DNA from: Oligoflexales bacterium
Lineage (GTDB): Bacteria > Bdellovibrionota_B > Oligoflexia > Oligoflexales > Bog-1112
Assembly: GCA_045105515.1 (NCBI GenBank)
Contig: JBGCDR010000280.1
Span: forward strand, 1 to 10,774
Direction of reading: 5' to 3'
DNA length: 10,774 bases
In this document: positions 125 to 9,490 of the stretch, piece by piece
Numbering within the stretch: the first letter of the stretch is position 1
Layout of the letters: every line of letters starts with the position of its first letter
Translations under genes and position numbers: made by a program
The notes under the pieces: model-generated
Seen by the model: the letters and a program-made list of their open reading frames with translations, nothing else
Told to the model about the DNA's origin: nothing
Databases searched by the model: none

Positions 125-580
125 TTAGACAACTCTAATACTCTTGGTTATGGTTACTTGTTGCTTCTTATACCAAACACAATCTTGATATAGGTTGCTG
201 ATAGCTTGCAAAAACGCTTGTTCTTGCAAAGGTTTTTCATAAATACCCGTTAAAGGAAACTCTTCCACAATTGAAAATTCTTTTTTTGATAAAAAACCTG
301 AAATCACTAGTACTGGAATATCGCAGTAAAATCGATGTTGTCTAAAGCGATTAACCAAAGCAAGTCCATCTAATTTTCCGTCTATCTTCCAGTCAAGTAC
401 TATAAAATCGTAGTGAAAACCTTGTGCTGTTTTCCATGCTTCTTCGCCATTATGGGTGCAGTCCACTTTCACATGATCATTCTGGCTGAACCAATGATTC
501 ATAAGGTAGCCGAGATCTTCTTCATCATCTACAAACAGGATTGATTTTGGTAAGTTTAGTTTTTTGTTTCCTGCAACCAT
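125..580 (-). CDS. Response regulator, stand-alone receiver (REC/CheY-like) domain with short C-terminal tail
   Basis: ILFVDD (D18/D19), FIVLDW (phosphoacceptor D63), LDGLAL, IPVLVISG (S94) and EKP (K116) are all present. No output domain. Confidence 0.92.
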   Translation of the reverse strand: MVAGNKKLNLPKSILFVDDEEDLGYLMNHWFSQNDHVKVDCTHNGEEAWKTAQGFHYDFIVLDWKIDGKLDGLALVNRFRQHRFYCDIPVLVISGFLSKKEFSIVEEFPLTGIYEKPLQEQAFLQAISNLYQDCVWYKKQQVTITKSIRVV

Positions 581-832: not shown

Positions 833-2353
833 ATGTATCTACTCTTGATTACAACAATAATTTCTTTAGCTTTTGGAATTGGCTGTAAAACTAAGAAGGT
901 CAATACCCCTAGTACTTATATAAAACCAATTGAACCGGAAGAACCAAAAGAAGAAAAAATTATTAGCCCAATATCCCCATTGCAGCCTAGGGAAGAGGTT
1001 TTGGGTGAAAATTTGCAGACTCAGGAAGCAAAATTTGAAGAAAAAGAAACCGGAAAACATAAGTCTCTAAAAATATTAGCAGAACCTGATCCAGATGCAG
1101 ACTATGTTCAGTTTGCAATCTGCCAAAAAGAAAATTCCAAAAACTGTAACCCTTCTGTCAAAAACCCTTTAGCCTTTGCTGCACACATGCATACCTTTCC
1201 AGATCCCCCCGAAGGGGAGCTTGAAGTCTATATTCGTTCATGTGTTGCTCCAAATCGCGCAGTCAATTACCAGCGCCCTTGCGGAAACTGGCTGATTGAA
1301 CCCTACGTCCAAACTTACAATTATAACGGCGAAATACGTAAGCTACTCATAGACAATTATATTGCCAGCCAACACATACTAAAGGAATGTCATAAAATTC
1401 AAGAAGCACTAGAAGAGTATCAAAGCAAGAATAGCAAATCACAATCACAGTTTGATACCCTGGTTGCCAATTATTTGAACCATATTCCTCCTGAAACCTG
1501 CAAAACCTTGATGCTTTCCCAAGAATGGCAAGCGCTGGAAGAGCAGATTGCTAGGGAAAGTGAAAATATTGATTCGCAAAAAGAAAAAGAAGGTTCGACA
1601 ATTCTGCTATCTTTGGGAGTCCCAGCTTTTATTTTTGGAATTGTTTCTTATTCTACTGGTGTGGTTTACAAAAATCGTTTTGATAAAGATGTAGCAAAGT
1701 ACTGGACCCATTTAATTAGAACTTACGCTGAAGAGACACCAAGACTTAAACCTTATGATTCCCTAAAAGAGATCAACAGTAGGCTGACAGAAGTAGATGC
1801 CTATATTGAAGCTATTGAGCGAAAATCGGATGCTGATAAAGTAGTTTATGAAAAGCAGCTAAAATCATTAGAAACAGAACAAGGTTTCCTAAAAGCCTAT
1901 CAGGAATTCGCAGAACTTAATGGTCTTCAAATCCTGACAAAGGATGATGAAAAGCTAAAGATAAAGATAGAAGAACTTGCGAAAAATACCAACAGCGAAA
2001 AAATGTCTATAGAGTCAAAATGGGTCAGACAAGCTGAGATCAATAAGATCACCGAGATTGATTCTCGCCTTAACGGCGGTGGACTAATAAAGGGGATAGA
2101 ACCGTTTGCAATCAAAAAGCCTGATCTGAAGCCCAAGAAATCGTTTTTTAGCGACCTTAAATATGCAGGTATTATCAGTACTGCCATAGGAGCAATTCTA
2201 ATCGGAGTCGAGGTCTTTGGCTTAGAAGTGCGAACTGTTTCAGATATAGATACGACTAAAAAGAAACTCGATTTAATCTATGAAAAGATCAATGCTATCC
2301 GATCAGAAATCAAAGATAGGCAAAACCAAATCAATAATCTTACTCAGAACTAG
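833..2353 (+). CDS. Hypothetical lipoprotein with Cys-containing N-terminal domain, two internal hydrophobic helices and coiled-coil segments
   Basis: 506-aa ORF. Hydrophobic leader ends FGIG-C18, followed by a Pro/Glu-rich linker and paired Cys. Hydrophobic stretches at about aa 256-279 and 444-464; E/K/L-rich helical segments. Confidence 0.8.
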   Translation: MYLLLITTIISLAFGIGCKTKKVNTPSTYIKPIEPEEPKEEKIISPISPLQPREEVLGENLQTQEAKFEEKETGKHKSLKILAEPDPDADYVQFAICQKENSKNCNPSVKNPLAFAAHMHTFPDPPEGELEVYIRSCVAPNRAVNYQRPCGNWLIEPYVQTYNYNGEIRKLLIDNYIASQHILKECHKIQEALEEYQSKNSKSQSQFDTLVANYLNHIPPETCKTLMLSQEWQALEEQIARESENIDSQKEKEGSTILLSLGVPAFIFGIVSYSTGVVYKNRFDKDVAKYWTHLIRTYAEETPRLKPYDSLKEINSRLTEVDAYIEAIERKSDADKVVYEKQLKSLETEQGFLKAYQEFAELNGLQILTKDDEKLKIKIEELAKNTNSEKMSIESKWVRQAEINKITEIDSRLNGGGLIKGIEPFAIKKPDLKPKKSFFSDLKYAGIISTAIGAILIGVEVFGLEVRTVSDIDTTKKKLDLIYEKINAIRSEIKDRQNQINNLTQN

Positions 2354-2875
2354 GTGCATGAACTTTGGTATGCCAAGCCACCTGTTTTAATTTCAAAATC
2401 TGACTGAATACACGAGCTCTGCATAGATACCCTTGTATGCGATTGCTAGAATTCACTACTGGTAAAAAATTTCGATCATTTATTTCTGCAAAATAATCGA
2501 TAGCCAAGCCTAAAGAATCTGTTTCATTGACAGTTTCAATTCGTTTATCCATAAGCTGTCCCACCTGAGTAGCGGTCGAGTTTTGAAACCCGTAATCCAA
2601 CACATACTGAAAGCACTTTTGTACAGATAAATAGCCTACAGGGATCAAGTTTTTTTTACTAAAATTAAATCAGCGAAGCCATTTTTTGTAAGCAATTCCT
2701 CAACTTTCCACAGAGAATCAGTATCAAAAATCGGCTTAAAAGATTTGCTCATAATTTTTTTGATATTTTGGTATCCGCTCAAGTATTCTTTTTTAACCAA
2801 CCAGTTAGTACGGCTACAACTTACTTGGGAACTACCAATTAAGTTGCTTCCTTTCAGCATTGTTTCGCTAAGCAT
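2340..2875 (-). pseudogene. CBS-pair (Bateman module) protein split by a single-base frameshift at an A8 run; pseudogene, recoded gene or assembly error
   Basis: ORFs 2645..2890 and 2340..2648 join when one A is added at the run (T8 at 2650-2657 on +). This gives IKKIMSK..PIFDTDSLWKVEELL..ADLILVKKNLIPVGYLS and VGQLMDK..TVNETDSLGLAIDYF..FLPVVNSSNRIQGYL, two CBS repeats, about 178 aa from ATG 2875. Confidence 0.82.
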
Positions 2876-2897
2876 CGTATTTCCATCCAATAAAAAA

Positions 2898-3260
2898 CTA
2901 ATAGTACTCAGAGTAGTAATAAGGATAAAAAGAATCCCTATTATATTCCAACGCCTTGTTTTCGCTTATTTTTTTGATTTGAATTTTTAGATTCTCTACC
3001 ATGCTATTTATCGAATCAAGCATCTTATGTGAATTGCCCTGACATTTGATGATAGACCCATCTGCTTTTGCTAATACTCCCTCAACCGTAAAGCCCTCAC
3101 CTTCACCCTCGTTTACTTGTTTATAAAATAATAGTCTAAGCGATACCGCTTGCAGATGATCAAGCAAACCACTCTCTTCTAAAACCACAAGCTTTAGTTT
3201 GGCATAATCTTCACAAAACTCGGGATTATCGATGTGTTTAAAAGAAAATACCTTTTCCAT
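2898..3260 (-). CDS. Divergent HPF/RaiA (S30AE) ribosome hibernation factor-like protein, copy 1
   Basis: FSFKHID..EDYAKLKL..FTVEGVL..IKCQGNSHKMLDSINSMVENLKIQIKK follows the HPF pattern (beta strand-helix..VE..DMYxAIDxxxxKLxxQLxK). SD AGGGGGAG lies 6 nt before ATG 3260 (GTG 3263 is an alternative start). Confidence 0.72.
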   Translation of the reverse strand: MEKVFSFKHIDNPEFCEDYAKLKLVVLEESGLLDHLQAVSLRLLFYKQVNEGEGEGFTVEGVLAKADGSIIKCQGNSHKMLDSINSMVENLKIQIKKISENKALEYNRDSFYPYYYSEYY

Positions 3261-3310
3261 CACAAGCTCCCCCTGTAGGGCATCTAAGCAAAACCCCTAA
3301 CTATAGGCCA

Positions 3311-3326
3311 TGCATATTATATGCCA
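3311..3326 (-). promoter_or_regulatory. Sigma54 (RpoN) -24/-12 promoter for HPF copy 1 and the CBS gene
   Basis: Minus strand TGGCATATAATATGCA: GG-N10-GC with the TGGCA head; predicted +1 near 3300. Confidence 0.8.
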
Positions 3327-3535
3327 TAATCATTCATTGTACATCTACAAAGTAGTTTTAGGGAGAGTTGAAATCTTAAACATAGACCCAGGTTTTCATT
3401 GCCAGTAAAATCGGTATATCCTCTTCTCGGAAATGCACGCTGAGCAAAGAAAAGCTAAAACAACAATGTTTAAAATCAGTTTAAAAAACCCACAACACCA
3501 CCTTTTACCAGCTTATTAAGAAAGAATAATCGACA

Positions 3536-3590
3536 AAGAAAACTTTTCTTAGTCTGTGTGATTTGATCATATAAGAGTTAAATTTCACAG
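3536..3590. promoter_or_regulatory. Candidate upstream activator (enhancer) sites
   Basis: Perfect palindrome AAGAAAA-C-TTTTCTT (3536-3550), TGTGAT-N3-ATCATA (3557-3571), and imperfect inverted repeat CTGTGtgATTTg / tAAATttCACAG (3554-3565 / 3579-3590), all between the two sigma54 promoters. Confidence 0.4.
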
Positions 3591-3653
3591 GACAACCATA
3601 CAATGGCCGCTGGAATCAGCCAAGAAGCCTATTTCGCACAATAGGTTTCGCTT

Positions 3654-3669
3654 TGGCATATACTTTGCT
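3654..3669 (+). promoter_or_regulatory. Sigma54 (RpoN) -24/-12 promoter for HPF copy 2
   Basis: TGGCATATACTTTGCT: GG (3655-3656)-N10-GC (3667-3668), matching TGGCA-N7-TTGCW-type consensus spacing; predicted +1 near 3680. Confidence 0.88.
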
Positions 3670-3743
3670 AATGTTCCCAAGTAGAGCGGCATGCTGAACC
3701 TGAGTCATTGCCATAAGCGGAGATAAACCTGAAAGGAAGCTCC

Positions 3744-4178
3744 ATGAGTATTGAATTTTTCAACAAAGGTATGGAACCATCTGAGTATCTTAACCAGACG
3801 ATCAGTCAAAAGCTTGAAAAAACAGTCAACAAATATTTTAATACCCCAGTCAGCATCCATGTCACGTATCATGTTGAAAACCATGACCACATGATTAATC
3901 TAAAAGTTTTTGTAAATAAGCAAGTTGATTTCACCATCCAGGCTGCTACAGCGAATATGTATCAGACCACTGAAAAAGTCATTGAAAAGCTTAATGCGAA
4001 ACTTCACAAACTAAAGGAAATTCGGGCAAACAAAGATCATCGCAGTATACGTGCCTTGAGCCCCGAGACAAAAATTTCAGATGATGACTCACGAGATTAT
4101 ATCAGTGCTGAAGATATTATAAAATTTGAGCAGGCCAAAAGAATTCAAGAAGAGATACCTGGAGCAAGCAAAGGCTAA
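3744..4178 (+). CDS. hpf: HPF/RaiA (S30AE) ribosome hibernation factor-like protein, copy 2, with non-canonical C-terminal extension
   Basis: IEFFNKGMEPSEYLNQTISQKLEK..KYF..IHVTYHVE..IQAATANMYQTTEKVIEKLNAKLHKLKE matches the HPF N-terminal domain. SD AAGGA precedes the ATG. Confidence 0.85.
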   Translation: MSIEFFNKGMEPSEYLNQTISQKLEKTVNKYFNTPVSIHVTYHVENHDHMINLKVFVNKQVDFTIQAATANMYQTTEKVIEKLNAKLHKLKEIRANKDHRSIRALSPETKISDDDSRDYISAEDIIKFEQAKRIQEEIPGASKG

Positions 4179-4227
4179 TAGCGACCGGTAATACTATCCC
4201 CTCTTTTCCTAACCGAAATTTTGTCCT

Positions 4228-4264
4228 CACAATTTAATCAACTCTAATGAAATTGTGTTAGACT
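4228..4264 (+). promoter_or_regulatory. Extended -10 promoter overlapped by an inverted-repeat operator candidate
   Basis: TG-N-TAGACT at 4256-4264; CACAATTT (4228-4235)-N14-AAATTGTG (4250-4257). Confidence 0.45.
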
Positions 4265-4299
4265 GAAAATGCACTACCCCACAAAAATGAGCAAAATAA

Positions 4300-5421
4300 A
4301 TGCAAGTAGCACCAAGTTATTCGCGTACCAAGATGTTCGGTTCAATTCGTTCTCTCTATGTGGATCGATTTGACTATCCTAATAATCAAAAAGTTTGCGT
4401 TCTTGCCAACGGATTCATTGAAAACGGGCATTGGTATCAAGTCAAAATAAACGGTAAATCCTTTTGCGATTTTCTAACAAAGCTTGGTTATGATGTCCAT
4501 GTTCTCAGCTTTTATCCACAAAAACTCCTATTTGAATCCAAAAGTCAAACTACAGACGTCAGCTTTAATAAAATCGTATGCAAGCTCTTACCTGCTTACC
4601 ACAAACGTCTAAGCCAGAAATACAAACACATCCACTATTTAGGCCATAGTTATGGAGCCACGCTGATTCTGGCTTTTTTAATGGGTTATGAACCCATAGA
4701 TAAGCCTATTAATAAAGCCAACTTCACTGCTAACAGAAGCATCGCAAAGTGCAATCAAGAAAATGTTGAATCCTTTACGAGTCTATCAGGGTTTTACGGA
4801 CTCAACTGGGATTTTTTTGAAACTAATTATTTCTCTCCAATTAATTTAATCAAGAGTCTTGGATTGAATCGCAAAAAATTAACTTTTGAAGGTGCAATTA
4901 TAAAGCCGATCATAAGAAAACTTCCCAATATGGTTCCTTACCTTCCTACAGATTTTTTATACGCTATCAAATACTTCCCACTGAAATACAGTGTAGGAGA
5001 AATTTTGAATAGATTCGTCCCTCAGACTATGGTCCCTTTTATTTACAGAAAAAATGTTGATATCAAAGCTTTCACCGAAGCTATCACCTACGGATCTTAT
5101 AGAGAATCATGGGAAACCATTGACACCATGCTTAGTATCGAAAAAAACAGAAATTTTGCCAAACCCTGGAAAAGCAATGCCCTTCGTTCTTTTAATAAAG
5201 ATTTAAAGAACTTGCGCCTACCAAGCTTGTTTGTCCAAGGGGACAAAGATATTATCACTCCTGTTAGCATCATAGAGAAGAGAGCTTTTGAACTAATAGG
5301 AAGTCGCAAGAAGGAGTTTATAACCCTCAAAGAGACAGGCCATCAAGACATCCTCACACCCAGGGATCCTAGGCCTCTACAACAAATCCTCGGCAATTGG
5401 TTCTCTGATGTTGAAGCCTAA
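4300..5421 (+). CDS. Alpha/beta-fold hydrolase (esterase/lipase-like), cytoplasmic
   Basis: GHSYG nucleophile elbow (S117), QGDKDII (D317) and TGHQD (H348) give an intact triad. No signal peptide. Confidence 0.9.
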   Translation: MQVAPSYSRTKMFGSIRSLYVDRFDYPNNQKVCVLANGFIENGHWYQVKINGKSFCDFLTKLGYDVHVLSFYPQKLLFESKSQTTDVSFNKIVCKLLPAYHKRLSQKYKHIHYLGHSYGATLILAFLMGYEPIDKPINKANFTANRSIAKCNQENVESFTSLSGFYGLNWDFFETNYFSPINLIKSLGLNRKKLTFEGAIIKPIIRKLPNMVPYLPTDFLYAIKYFPLKYSVGEILNRFVPQTMVPFIYRKNVDIKAFTEAITYGSYRESWETIDTMLSIEKNRNFAKPWKSNALRSFNKDLKNLRLPSLFVQGDKDIITPVSIIEKRAFELIGSRKKEFITLKETGHQDILTPRDPRPLQQILGNWFSDVEA

Positions 5422-5653: not shown

Positions 5654-8600
5654 ATGAAGTACTTGCCGATTCGATTTTTTTTCCTGGTATCTTTCCTAAC
5701 TCTAGGCATAGCTTGTTCATCAAAGAATAAGAGTGATCGAGAAAATGTTTCTTTTGAAGATATTGATAGCCCAGTTGATGGCAGTGGACCAGGTGGAGGG
5801 GATACCCCTTACGAAGAGGTAACCGATGTAGTTTCAGAGCCTATTGCCGTAGAGGAAAACCAATCAATACAGATTGAAGCCTCGGAAAATCAAACCTTAG
5901 TAAACCTCGTTTTCAAGACGAGTGACGCTTTTCAAGAAGGCCGTTACCTCTCAGAGCACATGCTGGTAATCAAAGCTGATGAAGAGTCTTGTATCAAACT
6001 AGAAGTGAGGGCTGACGTCGATTCTCTTGAAGATGTTTTAGCAAATGTAAGCAATTCAGAAACTGGTGAATTTTGCCGCGGCACCGAACCCAAGGTTGAA
6101 ACTGCGGAGGAAGATGATGAAGAGGACAAAGACGAAGATGAAGGTGATGATGAGAGTGAAGAAGGGAATAATGAAGAGAATGAGAACAATGAAGACGACT
6201 CTGTAGCCCTAACCCTGATGAGCCAAACTCCAGACCTATGTCATCAGCGTTTATTTCGACTAAAGACAAATGAAGCGGATGAACTAGGCGACCCCTTTGG
6301 GCTTGAGCCAATCGTAACCAAAACAGCTTGGCTCGTATATAAAACAGGGAATATTAATGTTTGGGCTGATGCTGAAATTGGCAATCCTTGCTTCGGTGGT
6401 GTCCCCACTAGCAGAGGTAAAACCAAGCTCATCCTGGAAAGCGTCTTGGACACCTTAATCAATTATTATTCATTACTTTTTCCTGATGCCCAAGACCAGA
6501 TAGTAGTAGAACATTACAAAAATATAGGTGACGAGGCAGCAAAAATTTATGCTCGTTTAACAACCCTTTACGGCCCAGTAAGCGACGTAAATGCCAATGG
6601 GGCTGTTGATATTCTAATCAGCCCTGAAATCAACCGTTTAATGTTTTCAGATTTAAGGACCAATAGGCATGATGATTTTGTTTCCGGCCTTATTGTCAAA
6701 CCTGAAGATTTGGATGCCTATGATAATGTAAGCAATCCGGAAAGCAATGAATCAGAGGTCGTCTACCTCTGGGCTCCTGATCCTGCAGGGCTCTATAAAT
6801 ACAGTCAATACCCAACAGCAAATAGTATTACCAGTAATTACCAAAAAGGCTATGTGGCCCAGCAAATTATGTCTTTAATCATCGCTAATGCCCGAATGAT
6901 TTCGAGAAAACTCCAGCCTGAGAAATTATGGCTAACTCAAGGCTTATCATTACTAGCTTCAGCCTACACGGCGGGAAATGACTATAGTTTTCAATACTTA
7001 GCAGAATACCTATCAACCCGTCATCACTATTTGAGCTTGACCGATAACTTTGACCAAAGCATGGTTGCAGAAGCATTTAAAAGTCGCCACTATGATGCAA
7101 CAGTAGGTTACCGCGCTATGTTTGCCTGGTTCCTTCACACCAAACTGTGTGGTCAAACGGTAGAACCTTGCGCAAGAATCAAGGAATTGGTTGATACAGA
7201 TAAGCACGGAATCGAAAATGTTGAAACTGTACTGGGCCAAGCAATAGATGAGATCTTAGCTGAATTTGGCCACTCAGTAGGAGTGGAAATGGCTTTCGAT
7301 AAAGATCGCGTCAGAACAGTCTTAGGTTTGCCAGAAAATAGCACACTCACCCATCATATTATGCCAGGATTGCAAGAGGTTTACCCAAGTGAAATCCCGC
7401 AAACTTATGAGCATGACAAAAATGCTGACCCTATTGCCGGAAGTGCAGATGATCGCGCATTTGCTGGTCCCTTCCCTGGGCGTGACACCTTATTTTACCA
7501 AACGCTGATGCCAGACTCTAACATCAATATACGTCTAGCAAAAAATTCTGTGACCTATGTGCTTCTCACTGGCCTTCTGCGCAAAGAAACCGTTACAACA
7601 GCCTTTATTGGAAAAAATGTGAGTGTAACTAGCATACCCTTTGGAGATCGTAACATTGCTCAAAGACAGATTCATATCGAGAAAACTTCGGAGATGGCGC
7701 ACTTGGACCAAAGACCAATAAACCTAAGTAGCCAGATAGATCCGCAGAAAACTTACTATAATCCGCAAGAGTACTCTAACTCATTCCTAGTCGATAAAAA
7801 CCGCGACCTTTATATTCTTGGTTCAATCGATAATTCTGATGTCAATCTTAGAGGTTCTCGCTACACAGTGGGAGATGTGGACTCATTTAACATCGAGGTG
7901 GACCCTTGCAAGGAAGAAGCTGACGAAGCAGCTTGCCGTGCTGAGGGTAGTAGAAGTATTTTATTGCAGGTGATTCCTAGGGATCACAACAAGGAACTGA
8001 TTCCGTCCTTGCTGGTTACCCAGACATCTCTTGAAATGTTCCGAGCCAACAAATTTCTTAACCGCCTCAAAAATATTGATGGAGAGGTATTCAAGGATGT
8101 CCCTGAAACTGGAACTGTATATGTGGGCTGCTTTTCATCAGCAGTATACCAAGATGCCTCAGCTCCAGATTTTACAACTTTCGATGAGTGTGCTAACGGT
8201 GGCTTAACTGAGGAAAACTATCAGACCGAGGTATGCGATCAATTTACCGGTGCTTGTGTGCCTGGAATGCCTGATCAAGCAATCTCATTTAACGCTTATA
8301 CATCTGCCTTTATTAAAAAATCCCAAGCTGATTTTGTACCTCCACTTTATGATAATTTCTTTCATGCTGGGCCTGACGGCTTTCCTTTTTTCAATAACTG
8401 GACAATCAGGTACCCGGATGTAGAGCTAGATGAACGTCCTGGCCCAAGACCCTTTATCCAGGAGGAGATAGACCGTCAATTTTTTGAATTCGCTTACAAA
8501 GAGGACCTTAAAGCTAAAACATACAGCGTGCACCCACTTTTTGCAGGTATAGAATCGTTTGAAAACATAAATCTTGATAATGAACTTGAAGTGATAAGTG

Positions 8601-9490
8601 ATGAGGCAATTTTAACTTTAGAAACACTTAGACTTCGGATTGCTGATGGAGCTGCTGTTTCCGAGGAAACCAGAGATGCATGTGGAGCTCTCGGTATTTC
8701 AGCGACATTCTGTGCCGACCCTTTTACCAATAGAGTTGCATTGTCTTCTGCTGTCAACGCTTATACATCTGATAAACGGATAGTGTGCATTATCGGTCTG
8801 AGTGATGTGGAAGATATGGATTATATTTTAAACCTATGTCCAGGGGCCTCTTTCACCCGGACATCTACTATTAATGGAATCCCAGAAGCGACGGAATCAG
8901 TTCCAGAATGGCTAAAAGACGAACAGTTGATTATTATTTCCAGCTCTTCTGCAGGTAGTTACCGGACCTATTATAAGCCAATCTTTCCTGTGGTCAAAAA
9001 AACTGAGAGTTACTGCCTTGGAAATGCTGAGAAAGATTTAAATGGTTTTGCTGGCACTGATTATCCTCCCTGTTTGATAGAAAATTCGGAAGGCGAAGGA
9101 GGAGATATCCGAACCCAACTCAATATGCCTGCTACCCAATTTTCTAGTTCTGATTGGTGCGGAGGAGTCTTTGAGGAGAATTTTCTTGCCTGTGCTGACC
9201 ATTATAGCTACTATATAAGTGCTCATTCAAACGAGAAACGAAAATTAGTTCCCACCCTCAACTACAAGCGGTTTACGGGGCAGAGAACTCGCTCCTTTCT
9301 TCCCTTTAGCATTGCACGCAGTGCAGGTGAGTATATTGGCAAGCAAGAACAGCTACATCATGTCCGATTTAATGTATCAACAGCATCATCAACCATTATT
9401 CATGTCATGGTTGGTGGACTTAAAAAATCCCAGGGAAAATATCTACTCCGAGTGAAAACCAAAGATTTTGAGGAAGTCATCACACCTTAA
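5654..9490 (+). CDS. Giant lipoprotein with acidic linker, degenerate M30-like gluzincin domain and Cys-rich C-terminal half
   Basis: 1278-aa ORF. Lipobox LGIA-C21; D/E/N tract near 6105-6200; IY..L...YG..SDVNANG.V.IL, SNESEVVY and E.LWLTQGLS.LA resemble M30-type peptidase motifs; many Cys after aa 750. Confidence 0.82.
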   Translation: MKYLPIRFFFLVSFLTLGIACSSKNKSDRENVSFEDIDSPVDGSGPGGGDTPYEEVTDVVSEPIAVEENQSIQIEASENQTLVNLVFKTSDAFQEGRYLSEHMLVIKADEESCIKLEVRADVDSLEDVLANVSNSETGEFCRGTEPKVETAEEDDEEDKDEDEGDDESEEGNNEENENNEDDSVALTLMSQTPDLCHQRLFRLKTNEADELGDPFGLEPIVTKTAWLVYKTGNINVWADAEIGNPCFGGVPTSRGKTKLILESVLDTLINYYSLLFPDAQDQIVVEHYKNIGDEAAKIYARLTTLYGPVSDVNANGAVDILISPEINRLMFSDLRTNRHDDFVSGLIVKPEDLDAYDNVSNPESNESEVVYLWAPDPAGLYKYSQYPTANSITSNYQKGYVAQQIMSLIIANARMISRKLQPEKLWLTQGLSLLASAYTAGNDYSFQYLAEYLSTRHHYLSLTDNFDQSMVAEAFKSRHYDATVGYRAMFAWFLHTKLCGQTVEPCARIKELVDTDKHGIENVETVLGQAIDEILAEFGHSVGVEMAFDKDRVRTVLGLPENSTLTHHIMPGLQEVYPSEIPQTYEHDKNADPIAGSADDRAFAGPFPGRDTLFYQTLMPDSNINIRLAKNSVTYVLLTGLLRKETVTTAFIGKNVSVTSIPFGDRNIAQRQIHIEKTSEMAHLDQRPINLSSQIDPQKTYYNPQEYSNSFLVDKNRDLYILGSIDNSDVNLRGSRYTVGDVDSFNIEVDPCKEEADEAACRAEGSRSILLQVIPRDHNKELIPSLLVTQTSLEMFRANKFLNRLKNIDGEVFKDVPETGTVYVGCFSSAVYQDASAPDFTTFDECANGGLTEENYQTEVCDQFTGACVPGMPDQAISFNAYTSAFIKKSQADFVPPLYDNFFHAGPDGFPFFNNWTIRYPDVELDERPGPRPFIQEEIDRQFFEFAYKEDLKAKTYSVHPLFAGIESFENINLDNELEVISDEAILTLETLRLRIADGAAVSEETRDACGALGISATFCADPFTNRVALSSAVNAYTSDKRIVCIIGLSDVEDMDYILNLCPGASFTRTSTINGIPEATESVPEWLKDEQLIIISSSSAGSYRTYYKPIFPVVKKTESYCLGNAEKDLNGFAGTDYPPCLIENSEGEGGDIRTQLNMPATQFSSSDWCGGVFEENFLACADHYSYYISAHSNEKRKLVPTLNYKRFTGQRTRSFLPFSIARSAGEYIGKQEQLHHVRFNVSTASSTIIHVMVGGLKKSQGKYLLRVKTKDFEEVITP

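Follow-up and report, generated by a model that had tools for sequence, protein, structure and literature searches.

Two divergent HPF-family genes and a frameshifted CBS-pair gene in an Oligoflexales bacterium: a possible two-gene analogue of CBS-HPF fusions

Overview of the locus

We describe here a gene pair from an Oligoflexales bacterium, HPF1 and CBS1, in which a gene for a very divergent protein of the HPF fold is followed on the same strand by a gene for a CBS-pair protein, together with a second HPF-family gene, HPF2, lying head-to-head (not tail-to-tail) with HPF1 at a distance of 480 nt. These genes are found on a stretch of 10,774 nt, the entire contig C280 of its genome, which was analysed at its full length and is called the window below. 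In our reading, to which we give a probability of roughly 40%, HPF2 is an ordinary accessory short HPF, while HPF1 and CBS1 make up a clade-restricted, two-gene analogue of the known CBS-HPF fusions, disabled or attenuated in this genome by a poly-A frameshift. What the data show are the folds and families of the proteins, the arrangement of the operon, a frameshift that is present in the DNA, a pair that is retained in close relatives, and unrelated tandems of an HPF-like and a CBS-pair gene that recur.

The window has a GC content of 38.6% and comes from a 6.29-Mb assembly of 461 contigs that is 90.9% complete (G000 below); the sequencing runs containing the stretch carry the label plant metagenome. 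For comparison, we refer most often to a genome of the same genus (G001) and to one from another family of the same order (G022). The features under discussion are the following.

2898..3260 (3263 from GTG), minus strand: HPF1; PF02482 at 24.0 bits, hhalign, AlphaFold2 with Foldseek
2340..2875, minus strand: CBS1, a CBS-pair gene of 178 codons if read through; PF00571, intact orthologues P0004-P0006
2650..2657, minus strand: run of eight A (A8; T8 on the plus strand) with the frameshift; orthologue comparison, run contigs
3744..4178, plus strand: HPF2, short HPF paralogue of 144 aa; PF02482 at 40.9 bits, orthologue in G001
3654..3669, plus strand: sigma-54-type promoter match TGGCATATACTTTGCT, GG-N10-GC; exact match to TGGCAYN5TTGCW
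3311..3326, minus strand: sigma-54-type promoter match TGGCATATAATATGCA; one mismatch
3264..3743, no strand assigned: divergent 480-nt control region, HPF1 to HPF2

HPF1 is a very divergent member of the HPF fold

HPF1 encodes 120 aa from its ATG, or 121 aa from the GTG at 3263, and a strong Shine-Dalgarno sequence (GGGGGAG) stands 6 nt upstream of the ATG. Its match to PF02482 (24.0 bits, E 6.4e-5) lies barely above the cut-off of 23.7 bits. Three independent lines, namely a profile alignment, a structure model and the Foldseek matches to that model, identify the protein as an HPF-fold homologue, albeit a very divergent one. A profile built from HPF1 and two homologues (A3) aligned with 12 canonical HPFs of the order by hhalign at 95.7%, E 9.2e-9, over 92 columns, the alignment beginning at a common FSFKH motif. 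Finally, an AlphaFold2 model made from three close sequences and without templates (pLDDT 66; core blocks 64-87; termini, and with them the first strand at residues 1-10, below 50) showed a helix (14-30), three strands (39-51, 55-66 and 71-78) and a second helix (81-103), and when it was compared with the PDB by Foldseek, all of the 11 best matches were HPF, RaiA or plastid pY proteins, with E from 4.2e-4 and TM of up to 0.66 (query) and 0.75 (target). An HPF1 profile run against PDB sequences returned only non-significant HPF/RaiA matches (E 0.47-1.5). The HPF fold that the sequence-only reading had ascribed to the open reading frame 2898..3260 is thus borne out by hhalign and Foldseek, as is its description of two divergent HPF-family genes, both of which score above the PF02482 cut-off.

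HPF1 retains the fold and a C-terminal helix with Lys residues, and lacks several of the invariant or near-invariant residues of the canonical HPFs of the order, e.g., those at the TKP and GGDG positions. It ends in a Tyr-rich, acidic tail of 18 residues (103-120; window 2901-2954) that closes with DSFYPYYYSEYY and follows the pattern …EYNxDSFYPYYYSEYY. This tail is unchanged in three of the four family members, the fourth (P0003) ending in ...YYYTEYS, while the HPF domain itself diverges.

The family is very small. Among 5.8 billion word-indexed clusters, two homologues besides the protein itself were found, P0002 (77% identity) and P0003 (64%). An exhaustive profile search of 1.84 billion representatives gave 27 proteins at E <=1e-3, of which a single one, P0007 (123 aa), belongs to the family; the other 26 are repeat proteins of 405-2562 aa in which the last helix alone was aligned. 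No homologue was found by a single-protein search in 40 relatives, no match by scanning the HPF1 alignment against genome and metagenome contigs, and no fused relative by a protein search over all lengths.

CBS1 is split by a one-base deletion in a poly-A run

CBS1 follows HPF1 on the same strand, its ATG at 2875 lying 22 nt and an alternative TTG at 2890 lying 7 nt after the HPF1 stop, exactly the 7-22 nt spacing noted from the sequence alone. The gene is split by a -1 frameshift into the open reading frames 2645..2890 (N-terminal) and 2340..2648 (C-terminal). Together, the two pieces cover 178 of the 178 columns of the intact 178-aa orthologues P0004-P0006 and are 77-78% identical to P0005; with A9 in place of A8, the reading frame runs through ...LILVKKNLIPVGY... 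and gives a 178-aa product. PF00571 recognises the second CBS motif in the C-terminal piece (27 bits) and the first in the intact orthologue P0005 (36.9 bits). In the window and in the three orthologues, the motifs read GYLSVQK and GYLCRA(R/K). At its 3' end, CBS1 (stop at 2340-2342) overlaps convergently by 14 nt with the gene for a 506-aa protein on the plus strand (833..2353), and this convergent pair is kept in G001 (L086).

Logan contigs of three sequencing runs (X1-X3) are identical to the window over 2300-3800 with 0 gaps, at depths of 11, 36 and 38. These runs represent three samples of one study, may themselves be the source of the window DNA, and have no sequencing platform on record. 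With the same A8 in the contigs of three runs, the break is not a one-off assembly slip, and some residual chance of a systematic miscall of this homopolymer remains. Such splitting is not pervasive in the genome: a split-gene signature was seen at 21 of the 4710 strand-wise A/T runs of at least 8 nt, compared with 9 of the 3742 control positions. At those 21 sites (e.g., C87:943, C177:53080 and C341:6668), long open reading frames stand in different frames on either side, and in 20 of them it is the sense strand that carries the poly-A; additional homopolymer frameshifts may account for some of these sites, and ordinary gene boundaries for others.

The CBS1 orthologues are intact at the site, P0004-P0006 as whole proteins and the G001 orthologue across the position (VVDKNLQP), and the poly-A run is absent from them, the corresponding residues being VDKQL, VNKDL, VDKKL and VDKNL. 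The 100 nt downstream of A8 show no stable structure relative to shuffled sequences (z -0.40). The lack of a downstream structure and the non-conserved poly-A make a conserved programmed frameshift unlikely. A8 tracts can slip, the run reads A_AAA_AAA in the zero frame, and the TGA of the first open reading frame (stop at 2645-2647) overlaps the TTG start of the second (2648-2646); the A_AAA_AAA and the TGA/TTG overlap may therefore leave room for some slippage or re-initiation.

As a family, CBS1 and its orthologues are basic (pI 8.7-9.3) and share a conserved N-terminal extension of about 35 residues. No longer relative was found in the range of 143-2000 aa, nor did the CBS1 alignment match anything in the metagenome. 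The best NCBIfam match of the orthologue P0005 is CbpB (NF041630), whose 36.7 bits are under the cut-off of 125. An AlphaFold2 model of a CBS1 orthologue was too poor for structure search (pLDDT 50.5), and a complex prediction with two copies of P0005 and the HPF1 homologue P0002, from three-row alignments for each, gave a score of 0.01 (mark 0.32).

The pair in close relatives and unrelated tandems elsewhere

No terminator-like site was found in 2000-4500, including the gap between HPF1 and CBS1. The longest contigs recorded for the CBS1 orthologues P0004 and P0005 (52085 and 39225 nt) have the same lengths as those of the HPF1 homologues P0003 and P0002, respectively, and the contig counts are equal too, which places P0004 on the contigs of P0003, and P0005 on those of P0002, without proving adjacency. 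In G001, contig C516 begins with the CBS1 orthologue, which converges on the counterpart of the 506-aa gene, and the HPF2 orthologue lies at the end of contig C448 with its hydrolase gene behind. These contig ends fit a conserved layout in which HPF1 would be lost to the gap in the assembly. Overall, the HPF1-CBS1 pair appears to be retained in close relatives, within a narrow clade.

Two other tandems of this kind came to light. On contig C302 of the same genome, an HPF-like gene (HPF3, 113 aa, PF02482 at 28.6 bits) is followed after 72 nt, on the same strand, by an intact, canonical CBS-pair gene (CBS3, 140 aa, PF00571 at 85.6 bits). In G022, a response regulator gene, an HPF-like gene (38.5 bits) and, after a 54-nt gap, a CBS-pair gene (33 bits) stand in a row on one strand. 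The other HPF-like proteins share 19-24% identity with HPF1, and BLASTP detects no kinship among the CBS proteins; the three pairs are therefore not copies of one cassette. Within each of the three, the partners carry opposite net charges, the pI values being 5.2 for HPF1 and 8.7-9.3 for CBS1, 9.1 for HPF3 and 4.85 for CBS3, and 9.4 and 6.1 for the HPF and CBS proteins of G022. Of the three HPF-like genes of the window's genome, two (those of the window and of C302) are thus followed immediately, and in the same orientation, by a stand-alone CBS-pair gene. Keeping in mind that about 17 CBS-containing genes (29 domain hits) are spread over 6.29 Mb, HPF/CBS adjacency in this genome is more than chance, which we put by rough estimate at about 1e-4.

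As to their surroundings, the C302 tandem (L002, ~25.1-27.7 kb) lies amid an open frame of 473 aa with a CBS tail, a cNMP-binding protein and a protein of the Tyr-phosphatase family, and looks like part of a small signalling cluster. The G022 tandem (L048, C622) belongs to a one-strand row that includes three receiver-domain genes and a gene for a BLUF blue-light sensor.

The neighbourhoods of HPF genes were surveyed in a sample of 40 relatives, as 30 loci from a family search and 19 regions around weaker matches, and a hidden Markov model re-found the HPF open reading frame in 45 of these 49. Among the 86 flanking open reading frames of the 45 loci, Pfam detected CBS domains in two, the CBS-pair gene of G022 and a CNNM-CBS-CorC transporter. 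At the four loci where the HPF frame was not re-found (L036, L041, L042 and L054), an in-house scan saw no CBS domain. The HPF3 protein itself has three homologues in the search of 5.8 billion clusters.

HPF2 and the sigma-54-type elements

HPF2 scores 40.9 bits with PF02482 (cut-off 23.7) and 38.6 bits with TIGR00741, narrowly under the cut-off of 40.9. Its S30AE domain is basic (pI 9.2 for residues 1-100), and its acidic tail (…DYISAEDIIKFEQAKR…) resembles that of the canonical HPF of the lineage. An orthologue is present in G001, where the downstream hydrolase gene is retained. Conservation with G001 (L035, C448) covers the ~70 nt that adjoin the HPF2 ATG (3674-3743) and does not extend beyond them; this stretch may be a leader element. 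With three HPF-like matches in the genome, HPF2 is the best-scoring one. The canonical hpf of the order has a gene for a RecD2-like helicase as its neighbour (22 of the 30 loci with the highest scores), and its orthologue was not found by tblastn in the 91%-complete assembly of the window's genome, so that this gene may be absent from the organism or missing from the assembly.

The TGGCATATACTTTGCT element ends 74 nt before the HPF2 ATG, and its mirror image on the other strand, TGGCATATAATATGCA, lies about 50 nt before the start of HPF1; an inverted repeat of 15 nt (I1, 87%) comprises the two. The whole genome contains 27 exact matches to TGGCAYN5TTGCW, against about 9 expected from a composition estimate. 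Sigma-54 itself is encoded: rpoN stands in an lptB-rpoN-rapZ row on contig C82, which lacks an hpf gene, in agreement with the earlier remark that the two HPF genes are outside the usual rpoN context. The HPF family once bore the name 'sigma-54 modulation protein'. Here, the HPF genes seem to be targets of sigma-54 rather than neighbours of rpoN, and the locus carries a divergent pair of accessory HPF genes that is probably under sigma-54 control.

Elsewhere in the order, genes for NtrC-type sigma-54 activators divergently adjoin weak HPF-like paralogues at L039 (G035:C49) and L045 (G032:C125), and at L129 (G017:C8) such an activator gene is two genes away from one. A GG-N10-GC match stands 53 nt before the start of the HPF-like paralogue of G032. 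The accessory HPF paralogues of the order tend to adjoin sigma-54 promoter matches or activator genes, which may be of broader use, as it offers a testable regulatory route to condition-specific hibernation factors.

Other genes of the window

A response regulator encoded at 125..580 consists of a receiver domain only. The 506-aa protein at 833..2353 and a 1278-aa predicted lipoprotein with an acidic low-complexity stretch (5654-9490, plus strand) are both without a match in Pfam, NCBIfam or PADLOC. A defence-system reading was considered and set aside, PADLOC giving no meaningful match for any of 10 proteins. The Rfam scan of the window found nothing at the gathering level and three weak matches at chance level.

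Comparison with known hibernation factors and CBS proteins

The mention in the sequence-only reading of HibA, which joins CBS and HPF domains, and of the CBS-only Dri is matched by real literature (PMC13324472, PMC13728122). HibA consists of four CBS motifs followed by an HPF/RaiA domain at the C terminus, which lies in the mRNA/tRNA channel of the 30S subunit while the CBS module sits on the 50S subunit; the module prefers AMP, bound with a Kd of 12 uM, over ADP and ATP, and nucleotides had no clear effect on ribosome binding (PMC13324472). AHA has the same design, Dri and Sri are CBS-only factors, and a few AHA-like sequences are bacterial, mainly from Patescibacteria (PMC13728122). With HibA/AHA, the window genes have in common an HPF/RaiA-fold domain and CBS motifs, and the sequence kinship seen is that of the domain families. 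The differences are considerable: HibA/AHA is one polypeptide with the CBS part N-terminal, the window has two genes with the HPF gene first; CBS1 has two motifs and would need to dimerise to reach the four of HibA/AHA; and, unlike in HibA/AHA, HPF1 is acidic and the CBS1 motifs are without the usual Asp.

A preprint reports that certain bacterial HPF isoforms, fused to CBS domains, are without the C-terminal domain of long HPF, coexist with a canonical HPF and occur at variable loci (10.1101/2025.11.04.686544). The pair resembles these chimeras in being bacterial, accessory to a canonical HPF, patchy and found at variable sites, with the HPF part first as in the window order, and differs in that its two parts are separate genes. 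ARC (ARC-P/ARC-A) is a two-protein, CBS-only, ATP-responsive complex that silences ribosomes (10.64898/2026.01.19.700304). The likeness is that CBS proteins from neighbouring genes, without being fused, act as a two-protein complex; the difference is that each partner has four CBS motifs with occlusion elements of its own, and that HPF domains play no part. Compared with the short HPF/RaiA (YfiA) of Proteobacteria, the HPF genes of the window lack an rpoN or raiA-type context, and HPF1 is acidic with its Tyr-rich tail. CbpB, a c-di-AMP-binding protein, is a stand-alone CBS pair like CBS1, and the orthologue P0005 is not a member by score.

Full-text literature searches found no paper on a bacterial operon of hpf and a stand-alone CBS-pair gene. 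The DosR dormancy regulon of M. tuberculosis includes both an S30AE protein (RafH/Rv0079) and a protein composed of a CBS pair only (Hrp1/Rv2626c), and the two are not known to be in contact.

Interpretation and alternative explanations

On the reading that we prefer, HPF2 would most likely plug the decoding channel of the 30S subunit, as HPF/RaiA do, and the HPF1-CBS1 operon would correspond to the CBS-HPF fusions (HibA/AHA and the bacterial chimeras) in a split form that acts in trans. A dimer of the CBS pair would associate with the HPF-fold protein and tune ribosome silencing, and the contact might be made through the opposite charges of the partners and through the Tyr-rich tail that HPF1 has conserved. 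Ribosome binding by HPF1, its contact with the CBS protein, ligand sensing and sigma-54 dependence are what we infer. With the one-base deletion in the poly-A run of CBS1, the module may be crippled in this genome, may be expressed at a low level through slippage, or may be made as two half-proteins.

A number of observations weigh against this reading. The frameshift breaks CBS1 in the DNA, so that the system may be dead here; two tandem CBS motifs in one intact chain are found in P0004-P0006 and not in the CBS1 of the window. HPF1 scores 15.7 bits with TIGR00741, far under the cut-off of 40.9. Its domain is acidic in the three members compared (pI 4.8-5.4), while the five other HPFs examined, including HPF2, HPF3, the G022 paralogue and the canonical HPF of G001, are basic (domain pI 8.4-10.2); the acidity counts against rRNA binding. 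The retention of the pair in relatives is also open to criticism, since the adjacency of P0004 to P0003 and of P0005 to P0002 is deduced solely from equal contig values, since the third orthologue, P0006 (19,412-nt contig), has no HPF1 partner assigned, and since more distant CBS1-like genes (24-33% identity, 5 genomes) have no HPF neighbour. A stand-alone CBS-pair neighbour was seen at one of the 45 re-found HPF-like loci (G022), and none of the 29 non-self loci with CBS3-like genes had an HPF-like frame within 1.5-kb flanks. Among the six closest CBS3 orthologues (42-48% identity; regions of 4-12 kb), an HPF-like gene is near two, at 2.7 kb (G017) and 5.9 kb (G049). As for the regulation, a sigma-70-like site (3343..3316, 10/12) overlaps the sigma-54-type element of HPF1, the element before HPF2 is not conserved before the G001 orthologue, though the 70-nt leader is, and Pfam found no gene for a sigma-54 activator in the 10.8-kb window.

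Adenylate sensing is the weakest part of the case for the HPF1/CBS1 pair. The Asp that ends the CBS motif contacts the ribose of adenosyl ligands. It is present in 23 of 27 CBS domains of the genome and lacking in both motifs of CBS1, which makes such sensing doubtful for this protein and is a further point against us. The original suggestion that the CBS protein couples HPF to the adenylate charge is therefore weakened, by the motifs, by the broken gene and by the acidic HPF1. The suggestion of a bacterial two-gene version of the CBS/HPF systems is supported in part: the absence of a terminator-like site and the recurrence of unrelated tandems favour it, while the frameshift in CBS1 and the acidity of HPF1 do not. 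Likewise, conservation of the CBS gene beside HPF1 stood for close relatives, where the pair appears to be kept, and failed beyond a narrow clade, given the single such neighbour among 45 HPF loci. For these purposes, the intact HPF3/CBS3 pair on C302, with its canonical CBS motifs, is a better test object than HPF1/CBS1.

Somewhat less probable than our reading is that such neighbours are co-regulated yet physically independent stress or dormancy genes, with the CBS protein acting on another target or solely buffering or sensing small molecules. HPF paralogues, CBS-pair proteins, universal stress proteins and response regulators would then just be collected in gene clusters for starvation or dormancy. 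Tandem Usp genes lie beside the CBS3 orthologues of G049 and G048, with the HPF-like gene 5.9 kb off in G049 (2.7 kb in G017), the pairing with HPF is not kept in most CBS3 orthologues, and the G022 tandem lies amid response regulators and a BLUF sensor, all of which would suit independent genes, as would the two DosR proteins of M. tuberculosis. They would leave unexplained why three unrelated pairs have tight same-strand gaps of 22, 54 and 72 nt, why the charges inside each pair are opposite, and why fusions of exactly these two domains exist. Clearly less probable, in our opinion, is that HPF1 has become neofunctionalised, no longer binds ribosomes and serves some other regulatory role, alongside the basic CBS protein or in opposition to it; it could be an antagonist of a basic CBS dimer that binds ribosomes or RNA, or a decoy for HPF2. 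The acidic domain, the lost near-invariant residues at the TKP and GGDG positions, the very fast divergence with an orphan-like distribution and the conserved extension of about 35 residues on the basic CBS partner are consistent with this, as is the ability of archaeal CBS-only proteins to bind ribosomes alone, described for Sri and Dri (PMC13728122) and for ARC (10.64898/2026.01.19.700304). HPF1 has, however, kept the fold and the Lys-bearing C-terminal helix, its gene diverges from that of a normal HPF and has a mirrored promoter element, and there is no positive sign of another target.

The lesion in CBS1 could also be the first one in an accessory cassette that is leaving the lineage, so that HPF1 and CBS1 would be a decaying remnant. 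This view, to which we give little credit, is in keeping with the presence of the frameshift in three runs, with the accessory and patchy nature of such modules, and with the lack of both a structure that would stimulate programmed frameshifting and a conserved poly-A in the orthologues. Against decay, there is a single lesion: both halves of CBS1 are 77-78% identical to the intact orthologue without further stops, HPF1 is intact with a strong Shine-Dalgarno sequence and a conserved tail, and the overlap of stop and TTG and slippage on A8 would permit some CBS1 product. At the other end, it is tempting to speculate that Oligoflexia repeatedly evolved split HPF/CBS systems, in which a CBS-pair dimer would dock without a covalent link on an HPF-fold protein and so recreate the HibA/AHA architecture from two genes, and that in HPF1-CBS1 the roles are swapped, the basic CBS dimer binding the ribosome and the acidic HPF1 tail gating it, with a sigma-54 switch and a poly-A toggle; so extended a scenario we hold to be improbable.

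Significance

Our case for a two-gene analogue of the CBS-HPF fusions is a narrow one, comprising few metagenomic relatives and a CBS partner that is broken in the window genome. The CBS-HPF fusions were shown to be widespread archaeal hibernation factors only in 2025-26. If our reading is true, a natural two-gene bacterial version would allow the HPF and CBS parts to be separated genetically and biochemically, and it would mean that the coupling of CBS and HPF arose more than once.

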